Shown here: in pieces, positions 6,725 to 45,934 of the stretch
How the letters are laid out: each line of letters starts with the position of its first letter
How positions within the stretch are numbered: the first letter of the stretch is position 1
Origin: Heliomicrobium sp.
GTDB lineage: Bacteria; Acidobacteriota; Blastocatellia; RBC074
Assembly: GCA_021155085.1 (NCBI GenBank)
Contig: JAJNQA010000021.1
Coordinates: 2,875-66,874 of the forward strand
Reading direction: 5' to 3'
Length of the DNA stretch: 64,000 bases
Notes under the pieces: model-generated
What the model was told of the DNA's origin: nothing
Database searches by the model: none
What the model saw: only the letters and a program-made list of their open reading frames with translations
Program-made: the position numbers and the translations under genes

Positions 6725-6938
6725 ACCTAACTTCCTTCCTACAAAAGTTGTGCAGTTTGATTTAGAAAAAGCTCTCAACGCGTCAGCGCTGAAAATTCGC
6801 CTATTGTTGGGACTTGAAACGTATTGGGAGAAAGGGCTGGCCCTTAGTGGCGGGTCTTACAAGTCGGGTTGCACAAGAGAGTTGGAATTAAGATTAAAGT
6901 CGCGGACTTCCATTTTCCGTTTGCCATTATTGATTTGC

Positions 6939-15400: not shown

Positions 15401-18400
15401 TGGAGCGTGCCGCCGCAAGTGTTGGTCGTCGTCAGCGGCGTGGCCACCACCAGATTCGGCGAATTCGGGAAGTTGTCGGTGAAGCCGGCGACCGTCAGCG
15501 CGACGGTGTTGGCCGCCGGATTGGTGATCGTGAAGGTCAGCGTCGAGGTCTGGCCAACCGGCACGCTGGCCGGACTGAATGCCTTGCTGATCGAAGGCGG
15601 CGCGACCACCGTGTGCGGTTCGGTGTCAGTGCCGCCATTGAAGTTCGTATCGCCCGCGTAAGTCGCCGTCAACGTGCGTGCGCCCGGCGTGGTCAGCGTA
15701 ATGACGCAGGATCCCCCCGCGACCGTGCCGGTGCAGGTTTCCGCGCCGCCGCTGGCCGTCACGACCACGTTGCCGGTCGCAGTGCCTACGCCTGGCGGTA
15801 CTGCCAGGACCGTGAAGACGACCGTCAGGTTCTGTCCGACAAAGGATGAATCCGGATTGTCCGAAACAATCGTCGTCACCGTGTCGGCTTGGTTGGCAGT
15901 ATGCGGCGCTCCCGCCGAGGTGCTGCCGTTGTAGCTCGTGTCGCCCTGATAGGTGGCCGTCAGCGTGCGATTGCCGACCGCCGTCAGCGCCAATGTACAA
16001 GAACCTGCCGCGACCGTTCCGGTACAGGTTTCCGTCCCGCCGCTGACCGTCACCACGACGTTGCCGGTCGGCGTGCCAGAACCAGGCGCAGCCGCCGCGA
16101 CCGTGAAGTTGACCGTGATGGCCTGGCCGAAGACCGACGGATCGGGATTATCCGAGGTGATGGTCGTCGTCGTGTCCGCTTTGTTGACCTGATGCCCCGC
16201 GCCCGTGGAAGCCGGGCTGGCGTTGTAGTTCGCATCGCCCTGATAAGTCGCCGTCAGCGTCCGCACGCCCGGCGTAAACAGGGCGATGACGCACTGCCCC
16301 GCCGTCACCGTTCCGGTGCAGGAATTGACGCCATCCGAAACCAGGACATTGCCGGTCGGAGTTCCAGCACCTGGCGAAGTCACCGAAACCGTATACGTGA
16401 CCGTCACATTCTGCCCGACCACCGACGGATCCGGCGCATCGGAGAAGATCGCCGCTGTCGTGTCCGCCTTGTTGACCGTGTGCGACACGCCCGCCGAGGT
16501 GCTGCCGTTGAAGTTCGCATCGCCGCTGTAGGTCGCCGTCAGCGTCTTCGCGCCGGCTGTGGTCGAGGTCAGTATGCAACTGGCCGCTGGCAAGGTAATC
16601 GTGCAGGTTCCGCCCGTGCCATCGCTGACCGTCACTGTTCCGGTCGGCGTGCCCGTTCCCGGAGGCGTCACCGCGACATTGGCCGCCACGTTGTAGGCTT
16701 GTCCCGTCACCGACGGATCGGGCGTATACGACGTGATCGTCGTCGTCGTGTTCGCCAACGTGACCTGATGCGCTTCGGTATCGGAACTGCCATTGTAATT
16801 GGCGTCTCCCGCATAGGTCGCCGTCAAGGTTCTATTTCCAATATTGGTCAGGGTGAGCGTGCAAGTCCCCGCCGCAATCGTGCCGGTGCAGGTTTCCGCG
16901 CCGCCGCTGATCGTCACCACGACATTGCCGGTTGGCGTCCCACCGCCCGGCGCGATTGCCGTGACGGAGAAATTGACCGTGACAGCTTGCCCGACAATGG
17001 AGGGGTCCGGATTGTCGGAGCTGATGGTCGTCGTCGTATTGGCCGCGTTGACCTGATGCGCTTCGGTGTCCGAACTGCCGTTGAAATCGGCATTGCCCGC
17101 GTAGGTCGCCGTCAGAGTTCGCGCGCCTGCCGAAGTCAGCGTGATCGTGCAAGTCCCCGCCGCAACCGTGCCGGTGCAGGTTTCCGCCCCGCCGCTGATC
17201 GTCACCACGACGTTGCCGGTTGGCGTCCCAGCGCCCGGCGCAATGGACAGGGTAGTGAAATTAACCGTCACGCTCTGGCCCACGACCGATGGATCGGGAT
17301 TGGCGGAGGTGATAGTCGTCGTCGTATTGGCGGCGTTGACCTGATGCGCTTCGGTGTCCGAACTGCCGTTGAAGTTCGCATCGCCCGCGTAAGTCGCCGT
17401 CAATGTCCGCGCGCCAGCCGAGGTCAGCGTCAGCGTGCAAGTCCCCGCCGCCACCGTGCCGACGCAGGTTTCCGCGCCGCCGCTGATCGTCACCACGACA
17501 TTGCCGGTGGGCGTTCCCGCGCCGGGCGAGTTCGCCGTCACGGTGTAGTTGACCGTCACGCTCTGGCCCACGACTGAAGGGGCGGGATTGTCCGAAGTAA
17601 TGGTTGTCGTCGTATTGGCGGCGTTGACCTGATGCGCTTCGGTGTCCGAACTGCCGTTGAAGTTCGCATCGCCCGCGTAAGTCGCCGTCAAGGTTCGCGC
17701 GCCTGCCGAGGTAAGCGTCAGCGTGCAAGTCCCCGCCGCCACCGTGCCGACGCAGGTTTCACTGCCGCCGCTGACCGTCACCACGACGTTTCCGGTCGGC
17801 GTGCCCGTGCCCGGCGCGTTCACCGTCACGCTGTAATTGACCGTCACGCTTTGCCCGACGACCGACGGGTCGGGATTGTCGGAGGTGATCGTCGTCGTCG
17901 TGTTGGCCAGTGTGACCTGATGGGCTTCGGTGTCGGAACTGCCGTTGTAATTGGCATCGCCCGCATAGGTCGCCGTCAAGGTTCTGTTTCCGATGCCGGT
18001 CAGCGTGAGCGTGCAAGACCCCGCCGCGACCATGCCGGTGCAGGTTTCCGCGCCGCCGCTGATCGTTACCACGACGTTTCCCGTGGGAGTGCCGCCACCC
18101 GGTGCCGCTCCGACGACCGAGAAATTGACTGCGACAGCTTGCCCGACAATGGATGGATCCGGATTGTCGGAAGTGATGGTTGTTGTCGTGTTGGCGGTGT
18201 TGACCTGATGCGCTTCGGTGTCGGAACTGCCGTTGAAGTTCGTGGTCTGCGCGTAAGTCGCCGTCAGTGTTCTGGCGCCTGCCGCGTTGAGTGACAGGGT
18301 GCAAGTCCCCGCCGCCACCGTTCCGGTGCAGGTTTCCGCGCCGCCGCTGACCGTTACCACGACGTTGCCGGTCGGCGTGCCGCTGCCGGGGGAATTGGTC

Positions 18401-20271: not shown

Positions 20272-20586
20272 GGTATCTCCCGTTGAAAGCCACAACCCTG
20301 GGACGCTTCGCCGTCAATGATGAAGCTCCGCAAGAACTGAGATTTTTGTTTTATTTGCGGGGATGCGGAAGTTGCAACGCGCTCAATCGAATTCCCCGTC
20401 CTCAAGCACGAAAAAATTGATTCGGATTTGCCCGGTAATTACCAACCTGCGCCGATGTGACTTCGCCCAGCAACCATTGCAAGGTGAATAATGCGCGACA
20501 AGGCAATATTCGTTGCCTGCACATACTCATCAATATGTTTGGGTTCGTCAATGTCCGGCGGCCCTTTGGACACAGCCAGCACTGAT

Positions 20587-28982: not shown

Positions 28983-30887
<1,905 letters not shown>

Positions 30888-30955: not shown

Positions 30956-31732
30956 TCATTTCGTCGGCCGTTTGAAGTTCAACACACAATCCTGATCACG
31001 CAAACTGACCGTCAGCGTAAAATTTCCAATGCGCAGTCGGTCCCCATCACTTAACTCTGCCAAACTCACCCGCTCTTCATTCAAATGGGTACCATTAGCG
31101 CTATCGAGATCGCAGACAAAATATTTCCCGCCATGCCGCTCAATCGCCACATGATTCCTGGAGATATTATCCCCATCAAGCACAACTTGGTTGTCAGTTC
31201 GGCGGCCGATCGTTATCCGTTCTTCGCCAAACGGTTGTGTAACACCTTCTTCCAGCCCCTTGATGACAATATGCGGATTCAACTCAATCACAGGTGGCAA
31301 ATGATGAGGCATCGTCTCACGACTTTTTAGTCCCCCGGTTCCCACCGAGGATGTGAGATGAACAAACAGGATGTTATGGCCGATGCGAAGCTGATCGCCA
31401 TCTTGTAACTGCGCCTGCTGTACGCGCTGACCATTGATGAATGTCCCGTTGCGGCTGAAATCGTGCAGGAGATAAACGACCCCGAGGCGAACAATTTCGC
31501 AGTGTAATCTGGACACCGTTTCCCCATCCAACACGACATCACAATTTTCTCCACGGCCTAATGAGGTGTGATGTTTGGTCAAAAATAGGTCGGTCCGCCC
31601 AGCACACAAACCACCAACAAAGCTTAAACAAAGCTTGCTAGCAGGAGAACTGGTTGTTGATCGCCCTCTGTCCAGTCTGATGGAAAAAGCAGATTCAAAC
31701 TGACGGGTAAAATCGTGTTCCTGGCCGATCAC
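30956..31732 (-). CDS. Protein containing two FHA domains.
   Basis: Two FHA cores are present: GRGENCDVVL...VSRLHCEI...NGTFING and IGRRTDNQVVL...ISRNHVAI...NGTHLN. Lies immediately upstream of the kinase. Confidence 0.8.
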   Translation of the reverse strand: MIGQEHDFTRQFESAFSIRLDRGRSTTSSPASKLCLSFVGGLCAGRTDLFLTKHHTSLGRGENCDVVLDGETVSRLHCEIVRLGVVYLLHDFSRNGTFINGQRVQQAQLQDGDQLRIGHNILFVHLTSSVGTGGLKSRETMPHHLPPVIELNPHIVIKGLEEGVTQPFGEERITIGRRTDNQVVLDGDNISRNHVAIERHGGKYFVCDLDSANGTHLNEERVSLAELSDGDRLRIGNFTLTVSLRDQDCVLNFKRPTK

Positions 31733-32309
31733 GGTTGATTCAATCTCCCTGAATCATATCAATCTTCAGGATTAAGCAGCATTACCCAACTATATAAATG
31801 TTGGATTGCCGCAAGTGTCTTTTAAATTTTATTGCTAAATGCGTCGAGGCAACCACTATTTGAAACCACTCAAACAAGCGCCTAGCAAAAGAGAAGGTAG
31901 CTTAGCACGACGTTATTGCTTTGGCTAGCCAACTGACTTACGACCAGCGTGGAAGAATCAGGGTGGGCGATTGCTGTTGGCGGAATAAATCTGCTAGAAA
32001 AAAATTCTGATGCTAGCGGATTTTGTGGTTAGCGTTTGATGCCCAGAAATGGTTGGGATGGATGAGTCTGATGTTCTGAGCTCTTGGGTGATGAAGCCAA
32101 CAGAGCCGGTCCCCATCTCGACATTCCGTGGACAGCAGCATATCTATCTGTTCTTTGACAGTGAAGAGGACTACAAGGCGTGCGTGGCGGACCTGAGCAA
32201 ATACCCGGCGTTTCTGCTCAAACAGTACCAGCAAAACCCGGAACTATTCCCGCAAGCGTTTGCCGCCAGTTTCGATTGCTGCAGTTCAGGCAAACAGAAG
32301 GACCTTGTG

Positions 32310-32909
32310 CTACGGTGCATCCGGCACAAGCAGGGTGGAGAGGTCTTTACGCTGCGCCCATCCTTCGTCCTTCCCTACTTGATCTGATGCACCGAAGAAG
32401 TAGAAAAGGCTCTCTACTTGCGCCAGTGTGACGTGCCGTTTAAGGCGCTCGCCGATGTTCTCGGGCGCGACGCAATGTACTGGAATCGTGCCTGGATGGC
32501 CTTCGGCCGTCCGAATCTGGGCGACATGACTGTCAAAGTTGCTGGGCGAATGCCCGGACACCTGGTCGCCGATGAAAAGATCTCCTAGCTCGACAAAGCC
32601 GGACTCTGTGTCCCGGCGACTGTCGGCGATGGCTGCCTGCTGGGGATTCGCCTGGCGGGTGGAGCGGCCGAAATGGTCGAAAAACTCTGTGCCCAATGCG
32701 AAGCGTTCCTTCCGACCTATGATTGTCAGGGGCGGCGCGCACCTCGAACGCGGTGAATTTGGCTGCTCCATGTGAGGGACCGGAATCTGTACGCGATGCG
32801 CTACCGCAACGACACAAAGCACGCGCGATCGGCAGACTGGGCAACGGCTAGGCAGTGGAACTTTCATCCTTACGGGAAAAGATTGCGAAAACTTGACAGG
32901 ATCAAGCAA
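32310..32909 (-). pseudogene. Possible degenerate MBL-fold (GloB-like) remnant. Very tentative.
   Basis: LFIGDQVSGH...TIPVHCVAPE weakly parallels the GloB C-terminal LFxGDTLFSGG...TLVxxAHE. The N-terminal His motifs are absent (TEFFDHFG). It overlaps a 112-aa ORF on the + strand (32049..32387). Confidence 0.2.
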
Positions 32910-32959
32910 ATTCTCGCCTTTTGCAAAATAATAGCCAAGCGTGACAAGAAGTCAGGGCC

Positions 32960-32976
32960 TGTCAATAATATTGACA
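32960..32976. promoter_or_regulatory. Perfect palindrome TGTCAATA-A-TATTGACA, a candidate operator.
   Basis: Read directly. It sits in an AT-rich intergenic region containing several TTGACA-like hexamers. Confidence 0.4.
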
Positions 32977-33141
32977 GCAAGATTTACCTTTAGATTATGT
33001 CGCAATGCGTGAGTACAACGTTTTTTTCATAGTGACTGCTCTTGCAGCAGTTCCAGTATTCAAAAAGTGCGTCTTTAATACCGTTTATAGTTTATAAAAA
33101 ATATTTGCCTGGCTTTAGTCTGGCCTTCTGCCAGTAGCTCC

Positions 33142-33181
33142 ATAAATCAACACAAAATCAGATAAATCAACACAAAATCAG
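33142..33181. repeat. Tandem direct repeat (2 x ~19 bp, ataaatcaacacaaaatcag).
   Basis: Read directly, within the AT-rich region upstream of the 33608 gene. Confidence 0.6.
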
Positions 33182-33607
33182 AATGATAAGGCTTAGACTA
33201 ATGAAATGCTGGTTGACTCCCCCTATAAACGCGGCTACAATCTGAGCGCGTTGGCAGCGAACCTCAATCCTTCTCTCGTGAAGTGACCCTTTCGCAGTCA
33301 CGCCTCTGTCCCTGATAATTAGCTTTCAAAAGTGGTCAAGTCAATAATCCTGAAGCTCCTTTATGCATTTGCCGGGGACAGTGGTAGTGCGTGAACTTAT
33401 TATAAAGAGCATCCCCGTTGAAGTTCTCACTGGGTAACAGGAATAATTAACTTTCGAATTCACTTGAATTTCAATTCTGTTGGCTGGTCGTGCCTTAACC
33501 CCGAATGGCTGGATTCAGGCAGGAAATATAGGGTCATGAACGTTATTATACTTTCACCCTGATCAAGCTTGTTTCTGGGCTAATGCCGCTATTAAGAGGA
33601 GAACAGG

Positions 33608-34836: not shown

Positions 34837-34876
34837 GGCACAATCAAATTGTTGTGATTGTGCCACTACCTTTTTG
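34837..34876 (+). terminator. Rho-independent terminator.
   Basis: Stem GGCACAATCA / TGATTGTGCC with 8-nt loop, followed by ACTACCTTTTTGCC. Confidence 0.6.
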
Positions 34877-35266: not shown

Positions 35267-36490
35267 ATGGCAGAGTTTACTTGCAGACTGGGAACCCCCG
35301 CAGGCGAGATTGTGACACGTACCGTTGAAGGTCTGTCCGAGCAAGAACTACGTCTGCGCCTCTCCCAGGAAGGTTATCGAATTTTCTCAGTCGAAACTGC
35401 TGGCGCGATTGCCGGCATGCGAATTCGGAGCGGCAAACAACGTTCTGTTAAGATCAAACTTGACGACTTTCTTCTCTTCAATCAGCAGTTGGCGGCGCTC
35501 TTCCATGCTGGATTGCCGGTCCTACAATCCATTCAGATGTTGCGTCAGCGCTCACCGAATGCGAAACTGCGATCTATTCTGGCCGATGTAGAAGCGCGAA
35601 TTAAATCCGGCAGCGCACTTTCAGAGGCTTTCGCGGCGCAAGGCGAAACCTTTCCGAAGATTTATACCGCCTCGATCCTTGCGGGTGAACGTTCCGGCAA
35701 TCTCGACGAAGTGTTGCGCCGATATGTTGAATTCACAAAATCAATTGCGCAACTCCGGCGAAAGATCCGCGGTGCTCTTACCTATCCGGTTATGCTGCTT
35801 TGTGCAGCGGTAGTGTTGATCATTGTGTTGACGACTTTCGTCATTCCGCAGTTCTCGTCACTTTATGAAAATATGGGCGCTGATTTGCCAAAGATTACAG
35901 TTTTTGTCGTCGGTTTTTCATCGGCAGTACGCGAAAACATCTTCTGGCTTGCACCAGCATTAGTCGGTTTTATCGCCGCAATTATTTCTTGGCGTCGGAC
36001 TGAGAATGGACGACGCACGATGGATCGCTGGATACTAAAGGTTCCGATCATTGGCGAATTGATCAGGCAGATGACGACAGCGCAATTTTCCCGCAGCATG
36101 GCAACGTTGTTGGCAGGTGGCATTACCGTAGTCGAGTCATTCCAAATTGCTCTTGCTTCCGTAGCGAACAGGGAGTTGCTGCGTTCGACCGAACCGGCGC
36201 TCCCCAAAGTCCGTGAGGGCAAGCCATTCACTGAAAGTCTGGCGGAAGCTGGATGGGTTCCTGAATTGGCAACTGATATGATTGGTGTAGGCGAACGCTC
36301 TGGGTCGCTGCGAGAGATGCTGGATGAAGTATCTGGCTTTTACGACGCGGAGACTGAAGTCAAACTTGGCCAGTTGACCAGTTTGATTGAGCCAGCCATC
36401 CTGTTTTTAATGGCTGGAGTTGTAATCACGATTCTTCTGGCAATTTACCTGCCGCTATTGCAAATGGTCAGCAAGGCAGGAGCAGCATAA
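35267..36490 (+). CDS. gspF: Type II secretion system F / type IV pilus PilC-family inner-membrane platform protein.
   Basis: GspF/PilC-like over 407 aa with two T2SSF repeats and three TM segments (e.g. LTYPVMLLCAAVVLIIVLTTFVIPQF). Confidence 0.85.
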   Translation: MAEFTCRLGTPAGEIVTRTVEGLSEQELRLRLSQEGYRIFSVETAGAIAGMRIRSGKQRSVKIKLDDFLLFNQQLAALFHAGLPVLQSIQMLRQRSPNAKLRSILADVEARIKSGSALSEAFAAQGETFPKIYTASILAGERSGNLDEVLRRYVEFTKSIAQLRRKIRGALTYPVMLLCAAVVLIIVLTTFVIPQFSSLYENMGADLPKITVFVVGFSSAVRENIFWLAPALVGFIAAIISWRRTENGRRTMDRWILKVPIIGELIRQMTTAQFSRSMATLLAGGITVVESFQIALASVANRELLRSTEPALPKVREGKPFTESLAEAGWVPELATDMIGVGERSGSLREMLDEVSGFYDAETEVKLGQLTSLIEPAILFLMAGVVITILLAIYLPLLQMVSKAGAA

Positions 36491-36518
36491 TTTCAGATCT
36501 AAGATTTCAAATTAAAAA

Positions 36519-38162
36519 ATGGCAACTGCAGCAGACCAAATCAATTCACTCTCTTCAACACCGGGGCAGGCGTCGGAACGCGAAATAGCAGAACGTGTTG
36601 CCCGGCGCTACAGGCTTAACTTTATCCCTCTCGAAAGTCATCCAGTTGATTACAATCTTGTGCAGTCACTGCCAGTGGACCTGATGCTGCGGAACAAATT
36701 CGTTCCGCTTCGCCGCGAAAACGGTCATATGGTCATCGCCATGGCGGATCCGTCGGATCTGATGCTGCTTGACGAGTTGAAAGCGCAGCTTCGGATTCCG
36801 CTTAAAGTCGAAGTCGCCACTGCAAGCGCGATCGAAGCCGTGTTGCGCAAAGGCGATGCTTCCCAGCGCGTGCTGCAGGAAGCAACTGAAGGCTTCCGCG
36901 CAGCGTTGGTCAAGGAAACAGAAAATGGTGAAGAGGTTCTTGATCTTGACCGCTTGTCTGGTGACAGCGAGATGTCGCCAATCATCAAGCTGGTGGATAC
37001 GATTGTCTTCACCGCTCTGGAAAAACGCGCCTCCGATATTCATATGGAGACTCGTGATTCAGACATGGTTGTGCGCTATCGAATCGATGGCGCACTTTAT
37101 GAAGCTGGCGACCCGATTGACATACGCCATCACCAAACGATCATCTCTCGTATCAAGGTCATGTCGGAACTAGACATCGCTGAGCGGCGCGTCCCGCAGG
37201 ACGGGCGTTTCCGCATGCGGATCAGAGGGCGCAATGTGGATTTTCGCGTTTCGATCATCCCAACTGCGCACGGCGAAGATGCGGTCATTCGTATTCTCGA
37301 CAAGGAACAGATTAATGAATCGTTCAAAGACTTGCGCCTGGAGGTTGTCGGCTTTGATCCGGTCCTGCTCGCGAAATTCCGCCGCTTTATTCTGGAGCCC
37401 TATGGAATGGTGCTGGTAACTGGTCCAACCGGTTCAGGTAAAACGACGACCCTTTATGCAGCGCTCAACGAAATTCGCAACGACGAGGACAAGATCATCA
37501 CAATTGAAGACCCGGTCGAATACCAACTTCGTGGTGTTGCACAGATCGCAGTCAATGAGAAAAAAGGACTGACTTTCGCGCGCGGCTTGCGCTCAATTCT
37601 GCGCCACGATCCAGACAAGATCATGGTCGGCGAAATCCGCGACAATGAGACCGCGCAAATTGCCATCAACTCGGCGCTCACGGGTCACTTGGTTTTCACG
37701 ACCGTCCACGCCAACAATGTGATTGACGTGATCGGGCGATTCATCAATATGGGTGTCGAACCCTACAATTTCGTCTCCGCGCTGAACTGCGTGCTGGCGC
37801 AGCGTCTGGTTCGCGTTATCTGCCCGCGTTGTCGTGAAAAATACCAGCCGACGGATGCCGATTTGATTGAAGCGGGTCTGACGCCATCAAAATTCAAAGA
37901 CCGAATTTATTACAAGAGCGTCGGCTGCGAAGCGTGCAACCATACGGGTTATCGCGGCCGGACCGCAATCCATGAACTACTGGATATGTCCGACACCATC
38001 CGGGAACTGATTATTGCGCGAAAACCAGGCTCTGAAGTCCGCCGTACCGCGATTCAGGAAGGCTTGGGCAGTTTGCGCGCATCTGCTTTACGGCTGGTAT
38101 TTGAAGGTCAAACAACGTTACACGAAATCAACCGGGTGACCTTCGTCGAAGAGATGCAGTAG
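36519..38162 (+). CDS. gspE: Type II secretion/type IV pilus assembly ATPase (GspE/PilB family).
   Basis: Walker A GPTGSGKTTT is present. A tetracysteine motif CPRC...CEAC is present. The N1 domain has FVPL...MADP. Confidence 0.9.
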   Translation: MATAADQINSLSSTPGQASEREIAERVARRYRLNFIPLESHPVDYNLVQSLPVDLMLRNKFVPLRRENGHMVIAMADPSDLMLLDELKAQLRIPLKVEVATASAIEAVLRKGDASQRVLQEATEGFRAALVKETENGEEVLDLDRLSGDSEMSPIIKLVDTIVFTALEKRASDIHMETRDSDMVVRYRIDGALYEAGDPIDIRHHQTIISRIKVMSELDIAERRVPQDGRFRMRIRGRNVDFRVSIIPTAHGEDAVIRILDKEQINESFKDLRLEVVGFDPVLLAKFRRFILEPYGMVLVTGPTGSGKTTTLYAALNEIRNDEDKIITIEDPVEYQLRGVAQIAVNEKKGLTFARGLRSILRHDPDKIMVGEIRDNETAQIAINSALTGHLVFTTVHANNVIDVIGRFINMGVEPYNFVSALNCVLAQRLVRVICPRCREKYQPTDADLIEAGLTPSKFKDRIYYKSVGCEACNHTGYRGRTAIHELLDMSDTIRELIIARKPGSEVRRTAIQEGLGSLRASALRLVFEGQTTLHEINRVTFVEEMQ

Positions 38163-38434
38163 ATGAATTTGGAACGCTTCCGGCCCCTGAGCGTTGAAAG
38201 CGCTAGTTGCGTTCGACCTGAATCCGTACCGCAACAGTGAATGTCAGCCCGTTTCACCGGAATCCGCCCCATTTTTTTTGAAGGTTTGCAGGCACCCGAG
38301 TCGTTCCACCATTTTTTGTATTTTGGCGTTTCGCCAGGAGTATTTTGTAAATGACAAGGACAAGGTTCGCCTAACCCTGTCCTGCTTTGAGATAGAGCTT
38401 GTCGAAGTTCAACACCAATAAAGAGAAGGTCACC

Positions 38435-41400
38435 ATGAACACAAACATCACGATTCGCAGATTTCTCGCCTTGTTCCTGACACTGTGTCTAATCTTGCCG
38501 GGAACTGCTCTGGCCGGCGGCGGTAAGGGCAAAAAGAATTTCAACGAGGGGAAAAAATACGAAAACGCACAGCAATGGGACATGGCCGCACAAGCTTACG
38601 CGTTGGCAGTTTCGGCTGAGCCGGACAATCCGGAATATCGGCTTCATTACATGCGCGCGTTGCAGCAGGCGTCGTTGATGTACGTCAAACGTGGCGATGC
38701 GCTCGCCGAACAAAATGATTATCCGGGCGCTTACACCGCCTACCGTTCGGCGTTTAATTATGATCAGGGCAACGAAGTTGCGCGAATCAAGATGGAGCGG
38801 ATGCTCGACCAGCAAAAGGCATTGGCCAACGGGCTGGAGCCAGTCGCTTATACGAATTCCGGCAATGTCAAACCGACCAGCGATCTGCAAATTTCGACCA
38901 AGCCGCGCAATCGTGACCTTCTGCAAAACGTTGAATTCAAAGACGCAAGCTTCAAATCGGTCGTCAAAAATCTCGGCAAACAATTGGGGCTGAACGTACT
39001 GTTCGATGATCAGGTCAAAGACGACAAAGTCACCGTGGATATGAATGATGTGACTTTGGCCAAGGCGATGGACAATATCCTGTTCATGAAGAAATACACT
39101 TTCGAGCAGATGGATCGCCGCACCATCATCGTGTATCAGGACAATCCAACCAACAAGCCGCGCTTCGAAAAACTGATGGTCAAGGCCTTCTATTTGGGCA
39201 ACATCAATGCCACACAGGCGCGCGGCGTCATCACATTGGCGCTCGGCGCGGCCCGGCAAGTTCAGCCACTGGATCAGGCTGCCGGCGGCCCAGGCGGCGG
39301 TGCGGGTGGCAGCGGTGGCGGCAATATCATTCTGGTCAAAGCCACACCGCAGGAATTGCAGGTCGTCCAGCAAATCCTGGAGATGGTTGACAAGAACAAG
39401 AATGAAGTTGTGCTCGACGTGGATATTTATGAAGTCTCGCACGACAGCATGCTGAAAATTGGCAATCAGATCGCGACTTCCCCGGTGCAAGTGGATGCGC
39501 TTGAGTACGTGGATAAAGAAACCGGCAAGCCATACTATCGGCAAACGCCGACGTCCTCGCTGGGAAATTTTGGTGGATTGGGACAGGCAAACGCTTTGGC
39601 GGGAACCGTCAATCTTCTTGGTGGCGCAGGCAGCTTTCTGGGAATGGGCGCGTTGATTGGCTTGCCGCCGACGACGTTGTCGCTGCTGCAATCAAAGGGC
39701 AATTCGAAGCTGTTGAATAAGACTCAAATTCACGTCCTCGATGGCCAATCAAACACCACCAAGGTCGGCAAAAGCGTGCCGGTACGTCTTGGCACCCAGT
39801 ATGGTTTTAACGGTGGTTTTGGTGGTGGCTCCCAACTTGGGGGAGGTCTTAATGGCGCAGTCAACGGCGCAGTGAATGGAGCTCTTGGCAACCAGTTCGG
39901 TGGATTTGGTGGATTGGGCAGCGGTATTGACTCGATTCAATATCGTGACGTCGGCCTCGTCATCGAAGCGACGCCTACCATCACTAACGAAGGTTACGTC
40001 GAAGTAAAGATGAAATTCGAGACTTCGGACGTCGCGGCTTCAGGCAGCACGAGCGAATTAACGCCGACCTTTACACAACGATCCATGCAAACCGTCGCAC
40101 GCATCAAAGATGGTGTGACATCCGTGGTTGCGGGAGTTAACCAACAGAACAAAGGCGATTCACGCGCGACCATTCCAATCATCGGGATGGTCCCAATTCT
40201 CGGACGCCTGTTCACGACTCCCAATCAGACATCCGCCCAGACCGATTTGATTATTACTGTCACGCCGCACATCGTCCGGTCTGCGGGGATTACACAAAAG
40301 GATTACCTGGCGGTCTACACCGGCGGCAACAGTACTGCCGGTGGCAGCTTGCCGCCGAGCGTGGAAGACGTCGTATACCGCGCGCAGCAGGAAGAAGAAC
40401 AGGAACGCCGGTTGATCGCGATGAATTCGCCGACGCCGCAAAGCATCCCATTGACTGCTGACAGCCAACCGGCAACCACGCAATTGGCAGGCAATCAACA
40501 ATCACAATTGGAGCAGCCAAGACAGCCGGCTGTGCAACCGGTCAACAACACGAATACCGGCGCGCCTGCGGTTCGTACTTTCGGTAACAATAATCTGGCG
40601 CCGATTTCCACTTCGAGCACATTATCGTCAGGGGCTCCGGTCGTTCAGCAAACGCCCCAGCAATTTGAGCAGAGCAATCCCACCGAGATTCCGCCAACAG
40701 AAATTGCGCTGGCAGGCAACAAAGAAGGCCCGATGAAAGATGGGGAGATGAGAGAAGGCGAGGTGATCAAGCCCGAAAATCCGGTCCCGATCGCAACGGT
40801 ATCCTTTGGACAGGATAGTGAAGAACGCCAGAAAAAGATGACTCTGATCCGGCAGCAATATGCAGATGAGCAGAAAAGGCTGGAACAGGAAGCCAAAGCC
40901 AACGCAAAATCAAAACGGGTGGAGTCAGCCCCCGCGCCGATGCCTGAAGGGATGACCGGACCAAAAACCAAAGTTCCACTGGCTGTTCCTGCCATGGGGG
41001 CTGCCCGAGGCAATGTGGGCTTCACGCTCTCGGCGCCAAATCGTCAGCAGGTTGGCAAGACTTTCAGCGTCTCGGTCGAAACAAACGGCCAGGGTCAGAT
41101 ATTTGGTGCAAGTATTGCCCTTCGTTTCGACGAATCCAAGCTGAAAATTAAATCCGTCCGAGGCGGAGAACTCTTCGGCGAACACCCGGAGTTGAGCCAC
41201 AGCATTGAAAAAGGTATCTTGAAGGCGTCCATCAAGAACCAGCAGAAATCGGGGGTTTCGGCCAGCGGGCGGGTGTTTGTGATCGAATTTTCCGCGATTT
41301 CCGAAGGCTCAACTGAAATCGGATTCAACAATGCTGACACGAAGGTCAATATATCCAGTACAACAGTCGTTGGAGCCAACGGACGGGCGGCGCAAGTCGT

Positions 41401-41443
41401 CATCAGCCGTGACGCTGTCGCAAGTTCAACCAATGAAAGATAA
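38435..41443 (+). CDS. gspD: Secretin (GspD/PilQ family) with an N-terminal TPR-like region and a C-terminal Gln/Pro-rich linker plus cohesin-like beta-sandwich domain.
   Basis: ATG at 38435 follows GAGAAGG and opens a signal peptide. The secretin core has VLDGQSNTTKVGKSVPV, IEATPTITNEGYVEVKMKFETSDV and IPIIGMVPILGRLFTTPNQTSAQTDLIITVTPHIV. After ~300 aa of low complexity, the C-terminus VGFTLSAPNRQQVGKTFSVSVETNGQGQIFGASIALRFDESKLKIKSVRGGELFG...GRVFVIEFSAISEGSTEIGF looks cohesin-like. Confidence 0.85.
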   Translation: MNTNITIRRFLALFLTLCLILPGTALAGGGKGKKNFNEGKKYENAQQWDMAAQAYALAVSAEPDNPEYRLHYMRALQQASLMYVKRGDALAEQNDYPGAYTAYRSAFNYDQGNEVARIKMERMLDQQKALANGLEPVAYTNSGNVKPTSDLQISTKPRNRDLLQNVEFKDASFKSVVKNLGKQLGLNVLFDDQVKDDKVTVDMNDVTLAKAMDNILFMKKYTFEQMDRRTIIVYQDNPTNKPRFEKLMVKAFYLGNINATQARGVITLALGAARQVQPLDQAAGGPGGGAGGSGGGNIILVKATPQELQVVQQILEMVDKNKNEVVLDVDIYEVSHDSMLKIGNQIATSPVQVDALEYVDKETGKPYYRQTPTSSLGNFGGLGQANALAGTVNLLGGAGSFLGMGALIGLPPTTLSLLQSKGNSKLLNKTQIHVLDGQSNTTKVGKSVPVRLGTQYGFNGGFGGGSQLGGGLNGAVNGAVNGALGNQFGGFGGLGSGIDSIQYRDVGLVIEATPTITNEGYVEVKMKFETSDVAASGSTSELTPTFTQRSMQTVARIKDGVTSVVAGVNQQNKGDSRATIPIIGMVPILGRLFTTPNQTSAQTDLIITVTPHIVRSAGITQKDYLAVYTGGNSTAGGSLPPSVEDVVYRAQQEEEQERRLIAMNSPTPQSIPLTADSQPATTQLAGNQQSQLEQPRQPAVQPVNNTNTGAPAVRTFGNNNLAPISTSSTLSSGAPVVQQTPQQFEQSNPTEIPPTEIALAGNKEGPMKDGEMREGEVIKPENPVPIATVSFGQDSEERQKKMTLIRQQYADEQKRLEQEAKANAKSKRVESAPAPMPEGMTGPKTKVPLAVPAMGAARGNVGFTLSAPNRQQVGKTFSVSVETNGQGQIFGASIALRFDESKLKIKSVRGGELFGEHPELSHSIEKGILKASIKNQQKSGVSASGRVFVIEFSAISEGSTEIGFNNADTKVNISSTTVVGANGRAAQVVISRDAVASSTNER

Positions 41444-41984
41444 GAAAAATCATCGGTTCATGCTCAACAATCGGTGGCTGGCAAATGCTGGCCACCGATT
41501 GTTGAATGGCAGCAAACCAGATCGCGAATCCGGTTTTACGCTGCTTGAATTGATCATTACATTGACGGTCATCGCCATTCTGGCGGCGGGCACGGTTCCG
41601 GTCGTTCACAATATGATTCGGCGCCAGAAAGAACTGGAACTACGCCGCAACCTTCGTGAGATTCGTCAGGCAATTGATGCCTACCAGGCCAGTTGCGTCA
41701 AGGGAGAGGCCGGATTCGACAAGGAAACCGATGACTGTTATCCGCCGAGTTTGGAGGCCATGGTCAAAGGCTTCAACCCGCCTGGCAAGGTCAACGAAAC
41801 CAAGCGTTTTCTGCGCCGCGTTCCGCTTGATCCCTTCACCCAAAACACGCAATGGGGCATGCGTTCGATGGAAGACGATCCATATTCGACAGGTGGCGGA
41901 CCGGGTGGCAAAAACGGCATTTTTGACGTTTACACCACTGCTCAGGGAAAAGCGCTTGATGGTTCGGACTACAGCAAATGGTAA
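41433..41984 (+). CDS. GspG-like pseudopilin/pilin 1 (prepilin N-terminal domain) with an unusually long leader.
   Basis: Contains ...RESGFTLLELIITLTVIAILAAG (G|FTLLE with Glu at +5) and the GspG-like EIRQAIDAY. About 36 aa precede the predicted cleavage site if the ATG at 41433 is used. Overlaps the secretin stop by 11 nt. Confidence 0.6.
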   Translation: MKDKKNHRFMLNNRWLANAGHRLLNGSKPDRESGFTLLELIITLTVIAILAAGTVPVVHNMIRRQKELELRRNLREIRQAIDAYQASCVKGEAGFDKETDDCYPPSLEAMVKGFNPPGKVNETKRFLRRVPLDPFTQNTQWGMRSMEDDPYSTGGGPGGKNGIFDVYTTAQGKALDGSDYSKW

Positions 41985-42529
41985 AGAAAGCCGGAAAAAT
42001 AGCAGTAAAGAGTGATGTGCAATCGAGATTGACAGCCAGATCACGGTTTGTCGAATCAGGGTTCACTTTGCTTGAACTAATCATCACCTTGACGATTCTT
42101 TCCATCTTGTCATTCGGAACCATTCCCATCGCCCGTAATGTCATCAGACACGAAAAGGAGTTGGAGTTAAAACGCACATTACGGGAAATGCGCAAGGCGA
42201 TTGATATGTATCACCGGGACTGCGCAGACCGAGGACTAATCGGCACTCTGGACCGCAAAATCAATGATGGCTGCTATCCGTTGACGTTGGAAGTCCTGGT
42301 TGAAGGCATTCCCAAGGCAGCGCCAGGAGGAATCAGCGCTTCCGGCGAAATGCTTCGCTATCTGAGACGGATTCCAAAAGATCCCATCACCGGGCGGGAC
42401 GACTGGAAATTTCGCTCGGTGCAGGACGAACCGGATTCAGAATCCTGGGGCGGAGAGAACGTCTACAATGTTTACAGTAACTCCCAGCAGATGGCGCTCG
42501 ACGGAAAGACCTACTACAAAGATTGGTAA
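41978..42529 (+). CDS. GspG-like pseudopilin/pilin 2, with a long leader.
   Basis: Contains ...FVESGFTLLELIITLTILSIL and LREMRKAIDMY. About 26 aa precede the predicted cleavage site. Confidence 0.6.
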   Translation: MVKKAGKIAVKSDVQSRLTARSRFVESGFTLLELIITLTILSILSFGTIPIARNVIRHEKELELKRTLREMRKAIDMYHRDCADRGLIGTLDRKINDGCYPLTLEVLVEGIPKAAPGGISASGEMLRYLRRIPKDPITGRDDWKFRSVQDEPDSESWGGENVYNVYSNSQQMALDGKTYYKDW

Positions 42530-42531
42530 TT

Positions 42532-42975
42532 ATGAAGTCAAAGTCTCAAAAATCTTTTTTCAGTTCTGACGCTTCGCACGAAGGGTTTCGAGCGCGGGTT
42601 CAACGCGGCTTCACATTCATGGAGTTGCTAATTGTGATGGTTATCATCGCAATTTTGGCTGCGGTGGCGATTCCGAAATATCTGGCCCATCTTCGCCGCG
42701 CAAAAGAGGTGGTGTTACGGCAGGACTTGTGGGCGATGCGCCGCGCGATTGACTTTTACTCAACAGATAAGGAGCAGCCTCCGTCTGGTCTTGAAGAGTT
42801 GGTCAGTGCAGGTTATTTGCGCGAGCTTCCGAAAGACCCAATGTGCCCTGACGACTGTCAATGGGTGACTGTCCCCGCCCAGACAGATAGTCTCAGCGCT
42901 GCTGGCGGCATCGGCGATGTGAAAAGCAGCGCACCAGGCAATGACTCAAACGGAGTTCCCTATTCAGAGTATTAA
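42532..42975 (+). CDS. GspG-like major pseudopilin/pilin 3.
   Basis: Contains ...RARVQRGFTFMELLIVMVIIAILAAVAIPKY and LRQDLWAMRRAIDFY. About 25 aa precede the predicted cleavage site. Confidence 0.65.
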   Translation: MKSKSQKSFFSSDASHEGFRARVQRGFTFMELLIVMVIIAILAAVAIPKYLAHLRRAKEVVLRQDLWAMRRAIDFYSTDKEQPPSGLEELVSAGYLRELPKDPMCPDDCQWVTVPAQTDSLSAAGGIGDVKSSAPGNDSNGVPYSEY

Positions 42976-43017
42976 GGCTCGTCATTGTTTTCCCTGGTTA
43001 TCAAGGGATCGTTATTT

Positions 43018-43971
43018 ATGAAACAACTTCCTATCTTATCCGGCCTCTGGAATTATCTGACTGCGCCCGATCTTCCCCGCACCGCACTGGCTATCAGCGA
43101 AACTCACCTGTCCATTGTCTCGCTACGACGCAGCAAAGGCGAGTTTGAGCCGCGCAACCTGGGCGTGCTGCGCTTGCCGGAAGGTTTAGTGCGCTCAAGC
43201 TTCACAGACACAAATATCTCAGATGAATCATCCCTGATGGAGCATCTGACCAGAACGGCAGCTCAGGCAGGACTCAGTCGTCCACGAAATTTAAGTGTTG
43301 CCCTGCCTTCAGGAAGTGCTCGCAGTCAGGTCATCTCGCTCGACACCATGCCCAATTCGCGCAGTGAAGTGGCAGAGTTGATCGAATGGAAGATCGAGCG
43401 CAGTTTCGGCCAGAAATTCAGCGACTTGCGGGCTAGTTACACCCGGCTGAGCGATTTTAACGGCCGGCCGCATTGGCTGGTGACCGCTGTTCATTCGCGA
43501 GTGCTGGGACAATACGAACGCATTTTCAAGGAATTAAGCTGGTCAGTCGGAATGATCGCGCCCCAGAATCTGGGAGAAGCGCAGTGGTTAATGCGGCAGA
43601 AGCTTGAAGACGATCAGGTCATCGTTAGTTTGAACGAACGCGGTTTCGATACAGTCATTGTACGTGGCACGGAACCGATTCTGGTGCGCGAAGTGGAATG
43701 CCCTCCGGAAGAACGCGAGGATGAATTTTACCGTCTTCTTATCTTCTACCGGGATCGTTTGTTGCCCGAAAATGCGCCGATCACACTCAATCGCGTGCTG
43801 ACGTTGGGAACACCCGCTGACCAGCGGCGTTTCCGCGAAGTGTTGGTGTCCGCACTGGAAAATCATGCGGTTGCACTGGACCCGCAGCAAATCGGTCTGA
43901 AAATCGAGCCCAACGCGCCATTCAACCATTTTGCCGCCTCAAGCGGATTGGCAACGATGGCGTGGGGTTAA
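43018..43971 (+). CDS. Putative PilM/GspL-like cytoplasmic assembly component (tentative).
   Basis: 317-aa soluble protein encoded directly after the pseudopilins. It has no signal peptide and only weak actin-like/PilM-like features, so the call rests mainly on position. Confidence 0.35.
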   Translation: MKQLPILSGLWNYLTAPDLPRTALAISETHLSIVSLRRSKGEFEPRNLGVLRLPEGLVRSSFTDTNISDESSLMEHLTRTAAQAGLSRPRNLSVALPSGSARSQVISLDTMPNSRSEVAELIEWKIERSFGQKFSDLRASYTRLSDFNGRPHWLVTAVHSRVLGQYERIFKELSWSVGMIAPQNLGEAQWLMRQKLEDDQVIVSLNERGFDTVIVRGTEPILVREVECPPEEREDEFYRLLIFYRDRLLPENAPITLNRVLTLGTPADQRRFREVLVSALENHAVALDPQQIGLKIEPNAPFNHFAASSGLATMAWG

Positions 43972-44205
43972 TCGGACAAAACTCGACGATTTTCCATCTC
44001 CTCACGTACCCAAGCTGTTACCCACTATTCGGTTTTCTGGGCAGAGATACGGTATACTCCACTGCCCTTCGTAACAGGCTTGGGCTGTATGTTGTCCCGG
44101 ATCGCAAAGCTTCACCACAAATTCATCATATCCAAAGACTGAAAGGAAGATATTTTCGGATGGCTGTCAGGCTCAGAGCTTGACGGTACAATCGGAAGGA
44201 TGATT

Positions 44206-44952
44206 ATGGATTCACGCACGAAACATTATTCTCTGACAAAATTTTCAATCACAGCGATTTCACTCTTCGCAATATTACTCCTTGCTGCATGCGGCAAGGA
44301 GTCGGTGGTTTCGGACAATTCCGGTCAGAACGCCGCCAGCAATTCGTCACCGGCTTCGGCCAATCCTGGCGCATCACCGCAAGCAGTTTCAACTCCGGGC
44401 GCATCGCCAGCGACTGCCCAAACAACTCCTGTGGGTCCGGTGGGACAGACCACGCCAAATTCTCCATTTGAAGCCCAACCTGGCGAAAAGAAACAAATGA
44501 TGGGAAATATTCCTGTCACGGTCGGGCCGGCGAAGCCAGCCTTGACGCCTGCGCCTGATCCATTTCCGCCGCGCCCAGCACCCGCCGTGACGACTCAAAA
44601 TGGCAAGGTTGTGCAGCAATGGCAAGCTCCAGCGGAAGCTGCCGGTCTTACCAGCCCGGTTAAAAATCGCCCGGATGCCGCAGCTCTTGGACGAGAATTC
44701 TACATGCAAAAATGTGTTGACTGTCACGGCAAGGAAGGCAAAGGCAATGGATACATGTCAGCTCAAACCAAACGTGACGGGAAACCACTCCCTCCAACCA
44801 ATCTGGCAAGTCAGATGGTGCAGGCCAATACGGACGGCGAACTGTTCTGGAAAATCACCAATGGCAAATCGCCTATGCCTGCGCACCGTGTCCGATTTGA
44901 AGACGAGCAACGCTGGTATATTGTCGCCTACCTGCGCACATTCAAACCGTAA
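44206..44952 (+). CDS. Lipoprotein with a C-terminal class I cytochrome c domain.
   Basis: Lipobox LLAAC, a Pro/Ala-rich linker, the heme motif CVDCH and a distal Met (GKSPMPAH). GGAAGG sits 6 nt upstream of the ATG at 44206. Confidence 0.65.
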   Translation: MDSRTKHYSLTKFSITAISLFAILLLAACGKESVVSDNSGQNAASNSSPASANPGASPQAVSTPGASPATAQTTPVGPVGQTTPNSPFEAQPGEKKQMMGNIPVTVGPAKPALTPAPDPFPPRPAPAVTTQNGKVVQQWQAPAEAAGLTSPVKNRPDAAALGREFYMQKCVDCHGKEGKGNGYMSAQTKRDGKPLPPTNLASQMVQANTDGELFWKITNGKSPMPAHRVRFEDEQRWYIVAYLRTFKP

Positions 44953-45169
44953 CGATTTCCAGATAGAGTTAAAATTGTAAGAAAGGCAAAGGAAACTTAT
45001 GGTTAGAGCAGAAACCCGACAGGTCTTTTTCAATTCCACGGAATCTAAATCGGGTATCAGCGCGTAGATTACGTCAAAGACCGCTGACGAAAAAGCTGAT
45101 TCATGACCTTGAACGCACTCTATTCAGCACGTTTTTTTGAGGGAAAATTATTGGAGCTTTAGCTTTTGT

Positions 45170-45934
45170 ATGACGTGGGAAGAAGTGAAAGAACTTGGAC
45201 CTTTTTATGTGCTGGGAGCGCTTGATGCGGAAACAGCGCTGAAGGTTGAAGATTTTCTACGTCACGCAACAAAAGACCAGCAGAACGAAGTGACCGAATG
45301 GCGCGAGGTCGCAGCCTTGTTGCCAATGAGTTTGCCACAAACCGCGGCTCCGCCTTTTCTCAAAGAACGCTTGCTCGTCCGGATCGCCGGGGAGGGAGCG
45401 GCCCCCTATTCAATTCAGTCGGGTTCTTCTGCCAAAGTATTACGATTCCAGCCCCAGCCGCGCGAGCCGAAACAAACGTCTCATTGGCTGGCGATGGCAG
45501 CGGCAATCTTGCTGGCATTCACCACCACTTTTCTAGCCTGGAAAAACTCCCAGCTTTCCACTCAGCTCAACCTGGCAGAGGGACAAGTCAGGGAATTCCT
45601 CTCCTCTGACACACAAATCATCTCGCTCTCCGGCGTTGAAGCGCCTGAAGCAAATGCAAAGGTGATTTGGAATAAAAAAAGCCAGAAGTGGAAAGTCTAC
45701 GTTTTCAATCTGCCTCTCCAGTCGAACGATAAAGATTATCAGCTCTGGTACGTGACCAAAGACGCCAAGATCAATGCCAAGGTTTTCAGCCCCAACGCAC
45801 AGGGCAACGCCGAATTGGATCTATCCCTCCCCCCTGAAGCTCTTCAGGGGCTTGCCGCTACCGCCGTCACCCTTGAACCCAAAGGCGGATCATCACAACC
45901 CACGGGTAAATTCTACCTTGCGGCGGAAATTTGA
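45170..45934 (+). CDS. Anti-sigma factor (RskA-like), with no adjacent sigma factor gene.
   Basis: N-terminus MTWEEVKELGPFYVLGALDAETALKVEDFL, a central TM segment WLAMAAAILLAFTTTFLAW, and an extracytoplasmic C-terminal domain. Confidence 0.5.
   Translation: MTWEEVKELGPFYVLGALDAETALKVEDFLRHATKDQQNEVTEWREVAALLPMSLPQTAAPPFLKERLLVRIAGEGAAPYSIQSGSSAKVLRFQPQPREPKQTSHWLAMAAAILLAFTTTFLAWKNSQLSTQLNLAEGQVREFLSSDTQIISLSGVEAPEANAKVIWNKKSQKWKVYVFNLPLQSNDKDYQLWYVTKDAKINAKVFSPNAQGNAELDLSLPPEALQGLAATAVTLEPKGGSSQPTGKFYLAAEI

Follow-up and report, generated by a model that had tools for sequence, protein, structure and literature searches.

A reduced operon of seven genes, related to type II secretion and type IV pilus machines, conserved across the Blastocatellia

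Results

A compact seven-gene operon is kept across the Blastocatellia

The 64,000-nucleotide stretch examined here (referred to as the window; contig JAJNQA010000021.1 of assembly GCA_021155085.1) contains a compact cluster of seven genes related to those of type II secretion systems (T2SSs) and type IV pili (T4P), encoding in order an inner-membrane platform (F), an assembly ATPase (E), a secretin, three pseudopilins (pp1, pp2 and pp3) and a PilM-like protein. The cluster is a real seven-gene operon and is kept across the Blastocatellia, a group of soil Acidobacteria. From its sequence we lean, by a small measure, towards the reading that the operon is functional and vertically inherited, and that it encodes a pared-down member of the superfamily of type IV filaments (TFF), one that may work in a T2SS-like manner. 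A preliminary description of the window had reported a compact T2SS/T4P-like cluster whose gene order and content differ from those of canonical gsp and pil operons; all seven genes were found in the order that it gave, on the plus strand, and the family matches described below agree with its assessment.

Related loci were gathered as homologues of the PilM-like protein, with one genome per species, giving 80 loci, and core-gene counts cover the 51 loci that have at least 9 kb of upstream sequence. All 80 are from Blastocatellia, Pyrinomonadaceae or unclassified Acidobacteriota metagenome-assembled genomes (MAGs), the nearest relatives of the window cluster being Blastocatellia MAGs; a few of the loci are titled 'Heliomicrobium', evidently through mislabelling. 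The platform, ATPase and secretin genes stand in the same order, followed by the pilin genes and the PilM-like gene, in 51 of 51 loci, and the PilM-like gene is the last of the module in every related locus of the reduced type. Identity to the window proteins across the related loci is 70-96% for the ATPase and 55-94% for the platform. A profile search of 1.84 billion cluster representatives returned 1016 related clusters, 60 of them at E≤1e-30. The conserved unit is thus a self-contained module, F-E-secretin-(two or three pseudopilins)-PilM-like.

The surroundings of this module vary. In the cultured species Chloracidobacterium thermophilum (locus L085, CP072632.1), reached through the profile search, an F-E-secretin-A-B-PilM-like module, where A and B are the two pseudopilin types described below, lies between housekeeping genes, and in a Pyrinomonadales locus the module has VWA proteins upstream and a pair of extracytoplasmic-function (ECF) sigma and anti-sigma factors downstream. 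The flanks in both are wholly unlike those of the window cluster.

Core genes appear to be split in some assemblies: the secretin gene in locus L004 (5916-8974, into 520 and 499 aa), the ATPase gene in L033 (4460-6077) and in C. thermophilum CP072632.1 (L085 4506-6139; 92 and 468 aa), and the platform gene in L052 (3260-4475).

The seven genes of the window share a strand and are tightly spaced, a layout consistent with a single operon (Table 1). The platform and ATPase genes are 28 nt apart, the secretin gene overlaps pp1 by 11 nt and pp1 overlaps pp2 by 7 nt, and gaps of 2 nt and 42 nt separate pp2 from pp3 and pp3 from the PilM-like gene. The only sizeable intergenic gap inside the operon is one of 272 nt between the ATPase and secretin genes (window 38162-38435). 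Hairpin-forming sites lie in this gap at 38321-38339 (+) and 38383-38357 (-), and could represent an internal attenuator or a processing site. A scan for promoters and terminators gave site counts equal to those of shuffled controls, that is, at chance level; the sole site in it worth noting was a hairpin at 34837-34864, 3' of the gene for a 376-aa secreted protein that precedes the cluster.

Table 1. Genes of the cluster and their immediate neighbours, in window coordinates. The starts at 38435, 41433, 42532 and 43018 are the likely true ones, judged from homologues and start codons; the mechanically called open reading frames (ORFs) start earlier. An arrow marks the prepilin cleavage site.
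Feature	Position	Strand	Characteristics
Whole cluster, seven co-directional genes	35267-43971	+	Order F-E-secretin-pp1-pp2-pp3-PilM-like
GspF/PilC-family inner-membrane platform, 407 aa	35267-36490	+	Pfam T2SSF x2, E=9e-52
GspE/PilB-family assembly ATPase, 547 aa	36519-38162	+	T2SSE, E=5e-130; MshEN-fold N-terminal domain
Secretin, 1002 aa	38435-41443 (mechanical ORF from 38399)	+	Pfam Secretin, 2e-29
Pseudopilin type A, copy 1 (pp1)	41433-41984 (mechanical ORF from 41331)	+	Motif G↓FTLLE
Pseudopilin type A, copy 2 (pp2)	41978-42529	+	Motif G↓FTLLE; N_methyl 4e-6; GspG 1.6e-5
Pseudopilin type B (pp3)	42532-42975 (mechanical ORF from 42523)	+	Motif G↓FTFME
Soluble PilM-fold (actin-like) cytoplasmic scaffold, 317 aa	43018-43971 (mechanical ORF from 42985)	+	AlphaFold/Foldseek
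Secreted protein, 376 aa	33608-34738		Upstream of gspF
Monohaem class I cytochrome c lipoprotein	44200-44952		Downstream of the module

Platform, ATPase and secretin

Scored against NCBIfam models, each of the four core families matches a T2SS equivalog best, with the GspE score roughly equal to that of PilB. The platform scores 318 bits against GspF (cut-off 424) and 263 bits against PilC, both below the equivalog cut-offs. The ATPase scores 549.8 bits against GspE (TIGR02533, cut-off 630) and 542.7 bits against PilB (TIGR02538, cut-off 676), and among structures in the PDB it matches PilB with 430 bits and GspE with 382 bits over a shorter stretch. It carries the Walker A sequence GPTGSGKT and a CxxC...CxxC zinc motif. 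The cyclic di-GMP (c-di-GMP)-binding motifs of MshEN+ PilB proteins, RLGxx(L/V/I)2..., were not found in the window ATPase's N-terminal domain.

The corresponding ATPase in C. thermophilum begins MSLDSTPDL...ARRYRLEFVDL and the c-di-GMP motif is likewise absent, whereas the PilB of this species that has been studied biochemically is an MshEN+ ATPase whose residues 1-146 bind c-di-GMP (PMC6957770). From this difference C. thermophilum appears to have a separate canonical PilB. Carriers of the module probably have a canonical PilB of their own, with the module as an additional machine, the C. thermophilum PilB being compared here by its published description.

The secretin is laid out as a signal peptide, a TPR region, N0/STN and Secretin_N domains, the secretin domain, a low-complexity linker rich in Pro and Gln, and a C-terminal cohesin domain (Pfam matches: Cohesin 4e-9, STN 8e-6, Secretin_N 1.6e-4, TPR_2 1.4e-3). 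Its NCBIfam score is 146 bits for GspD, below the curated cut-off, and 102 bits for PilQ, and it is also matched by secretin structures in the PDB. No AMIN domains were matched by Pfam in the window secretin. The Pyrinomonadales secretin retains the TPR-STN-N-secretin core and has no cohesin domain.

Two types of GspG-like pseudopilin

The pseudopilins had been described as three GspG-like proteins, which holds in so far as all three are GspG-like and carry N_methyl domains. They represent only two types, A (doubled here) and B, since pp1 and pp2 are paralogous, with 48-49% identity. GspG (TIGR01710) is the top or near-top full-family match for all three: pp1 matches it at 3.8e-9 over model positions 1-116 of 134 (N_methyl 8e-8), and pp3 at 2e-13 (N_methyl 4e-8). 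In the alignment, as we read it, all three share the GspG-like features YP..LE.LV, (L/V)P.DP...W and a C-terminal D-x-x-S/T...DG...Y..W loop. Among PDB entries, pilin B is closest to 5wda, the GspG/PulG pseudopilus, with E=6e-9 over chain positions 1-95, a match that reaches past the N-terminal helix.

Two pilin genes, A and B, are present in 39 of the 51 loci and three in the other 12; the two types are ancestral, and the extra type A gene of the window, pp2, is a recent duplicate. All loci looked at agree in the length of pilin B, 121-123 aa counted from the cleavage-site glycine onwards, and type B is probably the major subunit. Long leader peptides were considered as a family trait and dropped, because leader lengths vary among the relatives (from 4 to about 39 aa, with perhaps 25-34 aa in the window) and the start codons are uncertain.

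The last gene encodes a soluble PilM-fold protein

By sequence, the product of the last gene gave only a weak, sub-threshold match to PilM_2 (E=0.007). An AlphaFold model based on a 35-sequence alignment has a predicted local distance difference test (pLDDT) score of 88.2 and a predicted template modelling (pTM) score of 0.87. Foldseek comparison of this model with the PDB placed Pseudomonas aeruginosa PilM (5eou, 8e-19), the Thermus structure 2ych (TM 0.73) and chain M of the Myxococcus structure 3jc8 at the top; PilM is followed in the ranking by FtsA, and the GspL/EpsL cytoplasmic domain comes lower, at about 1e-9. The gene had earlier been called PilM/GspL-like, and model and fold search together confirm the PilM fold. 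No transmembrane segment was found in the protein, the maximum KD19 hydropathy being 0.63, and 65 alignment columns are invariant among the 35 sequences.

Both ends of the protein are distinctive. Residues 1-17 are disordered in the model, yet M1, P5, L14 and P17 are invariant, and the C-terminus (residues 300-317) forms an almost invariant FxxFAAxxGLAxxxW helix. Either end could make up for the missing PilN, by acting as a docking peptide or as a helix that binds the membrane.

Components missing from the locus

Pfam scans covered essentially all long ORFs of the 64-kb window. They gave no match to Peptidase_A24, PilN/O/P or GspC/L/M, no PilT or second T2SSE-family ORF, and no N_methyl protein beyond the three pseudopilins. 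A motif scan for prepilin-type ORFs within ±10 kb of the module in 13 related loci found no further one, and the window, like the 80 Blastocatellia loci, showed neither PilN/O/P-like genes nor a third, larger pilin. Two small ORFs that follow the PilM-like gene in the Pyrinomonadales were tried as PilN and PilO candidates and rejected, since they are the ECF sigma factor and its anti-sigma factor. The absences first noted from the letters of the sequence (prepilin peptidase, minor pseudopilins, GspC/L/M and PilN/O/P) are borne out by the scans of the window; the same description had allowed that the missing parts might lie just outside the operon, and they were looked for in the window and in the ±10-kb flanks of the relatives and not found.

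A search with a profile of the PilN of this family gave 167 matches, and among the 120 listed there were none on the 9.5-Mb OY969418.1 or on the C. thermophilum chromosome. This search used a word-index pre-filter, which limits its sensitivity, and the lack of a PilN partner on the chromosomes of these two reduced-type genomes, among the matches listed, is suggestive only.

Fuller homologues in other Acidobacteriota

Homologous but fuller clusters occur in more distant Acidobacteriota, which identifies the window cluster as a reduced derivative of a wider family. Two of them, L088 (GCA_053501295.1) and L089, have the order PilN-like, PilO/GspM-like, PilP-like, pilin, F-E-secretin-A-B-PilM-like, and so share with the window the order F-E-D-GA-GB-M, where D is the secretin and G a pseudopilin. 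The PilN-like protein of L089, which bears the NCBI label 'Blastocatellia bacterium' (N0A16), is 80% identical to that of L088; the PilO/GspM-like protein of both loci matches T2SSM_b at 2e-6, and both encode a bitopic TIG-domain protein whose C-terminal stretch we read as PilP/GspC-HR-like. In L087 the order is F-E-PilM-PilN-PilO-A-B-PilP-like-secretin, the secretin having TPR and cohesin domains, and in L086 it is F-E-PilM-PilN-PilO-PilP-like-pilin. A third, larger pilin-like protein is encoded in L086, L088 and L089, with an N_methyl match in the last two.

These fuller homologues resemble the window cluster in having an orthologous ATPase (60-70% identical), platform (40-51%) and PilM-like protein (25-30%), together with a TPR-secretin and recognisable pilins of both types A and B; they differ from it in their extra PilN-like, PilO/GspM-like and bitopic PilP/GspC-like genes. 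In the wider acidobacterial machine, GspG-like subunits and a TPR-secretin are combined with a scaffold of separate PilM, N, O and P proteins in the style of the type IVa pilus (T4aP). The 'minimal composition' ascribed to the cluster at the outset is accurate in that few genes stand at the locus; what it reflects is a lineage-specific reduction, as the fuller acidobacterial homologues exist, and 'minimal' is to be read as 'reduced at this locus'.

Flanking genes and the remainder of the window

The secreted protein upstream and the cytochrome c downstream exist as they were first described, and it is their link to the module that the distribution over loci does not support. The gene for the 376-aa protein is present in 23 of 27 loci whose PilM-like identity is at least 57%, in 2 of 11 at 43-57%, and in 0 of 11 from the Pyrinomonadaceae; between it and gspF lie 529 bp that include a terminator-like hairpin. 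The cytochrome c gene is present in 45 of 51 loci outside the Pyrinomonadaceae and in 0 of 15 inside, and travels with RskA, MtnA and NYN housekeeping neighbours, which points to plain synteny. Both genes are placed outside the module because both are absent from the Pyrinomonadaceae loci and, for the upstream gene, because of the hairpin-containing gap. That the cytochrome c might be a partner of the machine, either exported or of nanowire type, was considered and rejected: it is a monohaem lipoprotein in housekeeping synteny, absent from the Pyrinomonadaceae loci. A fold search with the 376-aa protein was uninformative as to function, and, as this neighbour is lineage-restricted, no conserved cargo gene adjoins the module. 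A candidate exported substrate is known only from C. thermophilum, where a gene 25 nt past the PilM-like gene, on the same strand, encodes 589 aa matching Peptidase_M28, Peptidase_M20 and EVE (L085 10964-12733); the window has no equivalent.

Possible regulatory genes lie in the vicinity. A protein with two FHA domains (30956-31732, minus strand) and a Ser/Thr kinase-FGE-sulfatase fusion (28983-30887, minus strand) are encoded divergently from the cluster. The FHA gene adjoins the module in many relatives, lying directly upstream of gspF in L048, L050 and L053, where the gene for the 376-aa protein is missing, and is absent from the Pyrinomonadaceae loci; its product could be a regulator of the machine, or the association could be mere synteny. 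An RskA-type anti-sigma factor (45137-45934, plus strand) is encoded two genes downstream of the module without an adjacent sigma factor, and in the Pyrinomonadales locus L073 (11014-12212) the PilM-like gene is directly followed by genes for an ECF sigma factor and for an anti-sigma factor of zf-HC2 type. That such envelope-stress-type regulators recur beside the module may be due to chance.

A gap of about 1.9 kb with low G+C (31733-33607; about 0.49) separates the FHA gene from that for the 376-aa protein. It contains no convincing ORF, only ones of 112 aa and 199 aa, neither with a Pfam match, and has no Rfam match. The same gap measures about 0.7 kb in L007, L009 and L013, so the window has about 1.2 kb of extra, unexplained sequence. 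Other neighbours in the window are unrelated to the cluster and include MtnA, an NYN protein, TonB-type barrels and genes of leucine/acyl-CoA catabolism. An ORF of 2628 aa (12409-20295, minus strand) contains 10 Big_3_5 Ig-like domains, 6 He_PIG domains and FG-GAP repeats, in a stretch with G+C of 0.62-0.65 against 0.50-0.58 in adjacent windows, and may encode a large surface adhesin, possibly acquired horizontally. A further FG-GAP/DUF11 protein, of 869 aa, is encoded at 4169-6778 (minus strand). A tRNA-Cys was all that Rfam and tRNA scans detected in the window.

Discussion

Proposed function and alternatives

The families, folds, gene order and conservation of the cluster are established, and the mechanism is what we infer from them. 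If the machine works in a T2SS-like manner, a prepilin peptidase, assumed to be encoded elsewhere, would cleave the pseudopilins between the G and F of their motifs; such a peptidase is often common to several systems in one genome (PMC6668835). A hexameric GspE-like ATPase would act via the GspF platform and the soluble PilM-like scaffold, and together these would polymerise a short pseudopilus, in which type A would probably be the minor or priming subunit alongside type B. The pseudopilus would push folded periplasmic proteins outward through the secretin, the fused TPR domain of which may stand in for a separate pilotin, and the connectors of PilN/O/P type would have been lost or, as an assumption, be supplied in trans. 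The leaning towards a T2SS comes from the T2SS models scoring best and from the absence of PilT, of AMIN domains and of the MshEN c-di-GMP motif.

Several points weigh against this interpretation. Every core protein falls below the NCBIfam equivalog cut-offs, for T2SS and T4aP alike, and the ATPase scores, while they establish membership of the GspE/PilB family, do not separate PilB from GspE. The modelled scaffold is nearer in structure to the PilM of T4aP than to the cytoplasmic domain of GspL. The cluster is without GspH-K and GspC, which known T2SSs need for pseudopilus priming and substrate recruitment, and the split core genes in some assemblies may be sequencing errors or real pseudogenes.

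The PilM fold of the scaffold would also suit a surface-exposed, non-retractile pilus for adhesion or aggregation, with the GspG-like fibre passing through the secretin, as would the T4aP fashion in which the fuller relatives use unfused PilM/PilN/PilO/PilP-like parts and the slightly closer match of the ATPase to PilB than to GspE in the PDB. Over-produced GspG pseudopilins can form surface fibres. We nevertheless think such a pilus unlikely, given that both pilin types are GspG-like with GspG as their best family match, that the type B subunit is small, constant in length and pseudopilin-like, and that there is no PilT, adhesin-like or PilY1-like gene, minor-pilin set or AMIN-domain PilQ.

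A second alternative holds that the cluster is one locus of an ordinary dispersed T4aP (pilC-pilB-pilQ-pilins-pilM), with the other pil genes elsewhere and only the arrangement non-canonical. T4aP genes are typically scattered over several loci (PMC6668835), the PilM fold fits, and the scans made here are those of the window and of related loci. Canonical pilM, however, is co-transcribed with pilNOPQ, whereas none of the related loci links the PilM-like gene to N/O/P, and its product scores below the Pfam threshold for PilM_2; the pilins are GspG-like and not PilA-like, and C. thermophilum seems to own a separate canonical MshEN+ PilB. A weaker argument in the same direction is that the PilN profile was unmatched on two reduced-type chromosomes among the 120 of 167 matches listed. 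Taken together, these observations make a dispersed T4aP improbable. That the cluster is a non-functional, decaying remnant of the fuller acidobacterial system is very improbable indeed: compared with L088 and L089, the locus has lost its PilN/O/P-like genes and its third pilin, and split genes turn up now and then, but the class-wide conservation of an intact module, with the ATPase and platform identities given above, a pilin B of constant length and a PilM-like protein with its 65 invariant columns, is not expected of a decaying locus.

A stronger form of the T2SS-like interpretation, which we regard as doubtful, is that of a working two-membrane machine without any transmembrane connector (PilN/O/P or GspC/L/M) and without minor pseudopilins at the tip. 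Its only parts would be the motor, the platform, the soluble scaffold of PilM fold, the two kinds of GspG-like subunit and a TPR-secretin that pilots itself, and the conserved C-terminal FxxFAAxxGLAxxxW helix of the scaffold may keep it at the membrane. If this were true, the machine would be the smallest known diderm T2SS-type machine and, set against its fuller acidobacterial relatives, a natural experiment on which parts are dispensable.

Nearly everything known of the biology of T2SSs and T4P comes from Proteobacteria and a handful of other models, and Denise et al. left hundreds of 'generic' systems unassigned. A class-wide reduced variant in abundant soil Acidobacteria, with fuller homologues in sister lineages, offers a comparative series for finding the essential components of the alignment and tip complexes. 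The series is also relevant to GspL-type fusions as against free PilM and PilN, and to secretins that carry their own TPR (pilotin-like) and cohesin modules, and the presence of the module in the culturable C. thermophilum might permit experimental tests. If genes for the missing parts turn up in other places, what is left of the finding is an unusual gene arrangement.

Comparison with known systems

Compared with the canonical T2SS of Proteobacteria (Gsp/Pul/Eps/Xcp), the window cluster is alike in its zinc-motif ATPase of the GspE/PilB family with an N-terminal domain lacking c-di-GMP motifs, its GspF platform, its secretin with N0 and Secretin_N, its GspG-like pseudopilins and the lack of a retraction ATPase. 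Of the parts that define a T2SS, the GspF platform, GspD secretin and GspG pseudopilin are all present, the T2SS model being the best for each at scores below the cut-offs. The minor pseudopilins GspH/I/J/K are missing from the window and from the ±10-kb surroundings of the module in 13 related loci, and GspC and GspM are missing from the window, where a free, soluble PilM-fold protein stands in place of the fused, membrane-anchored GspL. The canonical secretin has domains N1-N3, whereas that of the window has one detectable Secretin_N together with an N-terminal TPR region and a C-terminal cohesin domain, and the canonical gene order runs from C to O, against F-E-D-G-G-M here.

With T4aP (PilBCMNOPQ, PilA, PilT) the cluster shares a PilM-fold scaffold, a PilB/PilC-family motor and platform and a secretin, and its fuller acidobacterial relatives share in addition the separate PilM, PilN, PilO and PilP-like genes. 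In T4aP, PilM-N-O-P are encoded with PilQ; in the window and the 80 loci no PilN/O/P was found beside the PilM-like gene. Neither PilT nor PilU was found within the window, and PilN/O/P, PilT, a minor-pilin set and AMIN domains are missing from the window and the flanks of its relatives. The pilins are GspG-like and not of PilA type, the secretin is without the AMIN domains of PilQ, and the ATPase lacks the MshEN c-di-GMP motifs of the PilB studied in Chloracidobacterium.

Published parallels are offered by chlamydiae, with their reduced T2SS, and by the TFF systems termed 'generic', of which Denise et al. (2019) described 884 (PMC6668835); models of the MacSyFinder type would place reduced systems of this sort in the generic class. 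A chlamydial T2SS without minor pilins and GspL/M is accepted (PMC6668835), and it resembles the window cluster in having an ATPase, a platform, a secretin and a pseudopilin with no recognisable minor pilins or GspL/M. By its published description it differs in that the window is from another phylum and a free-living soil lineage, and in that the window cluster has a PilM-fold protein, a TPR/cohesin secretin and two GspG-like pilin types. The co-localised ATPase, inner-membrane platform and pilin by which a generic TFF is defined (PMC6668835) are all found here, and by the definition of Denise et al. the cluster counts as a generic TFF that leans towards the T2SS. No description of it turned up in searches of the literature. 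It is not a new kind of machine; it is a stripped-down relative of T2SSs and T4P, built of familiar parts, conserved and as yet uncharacterised.

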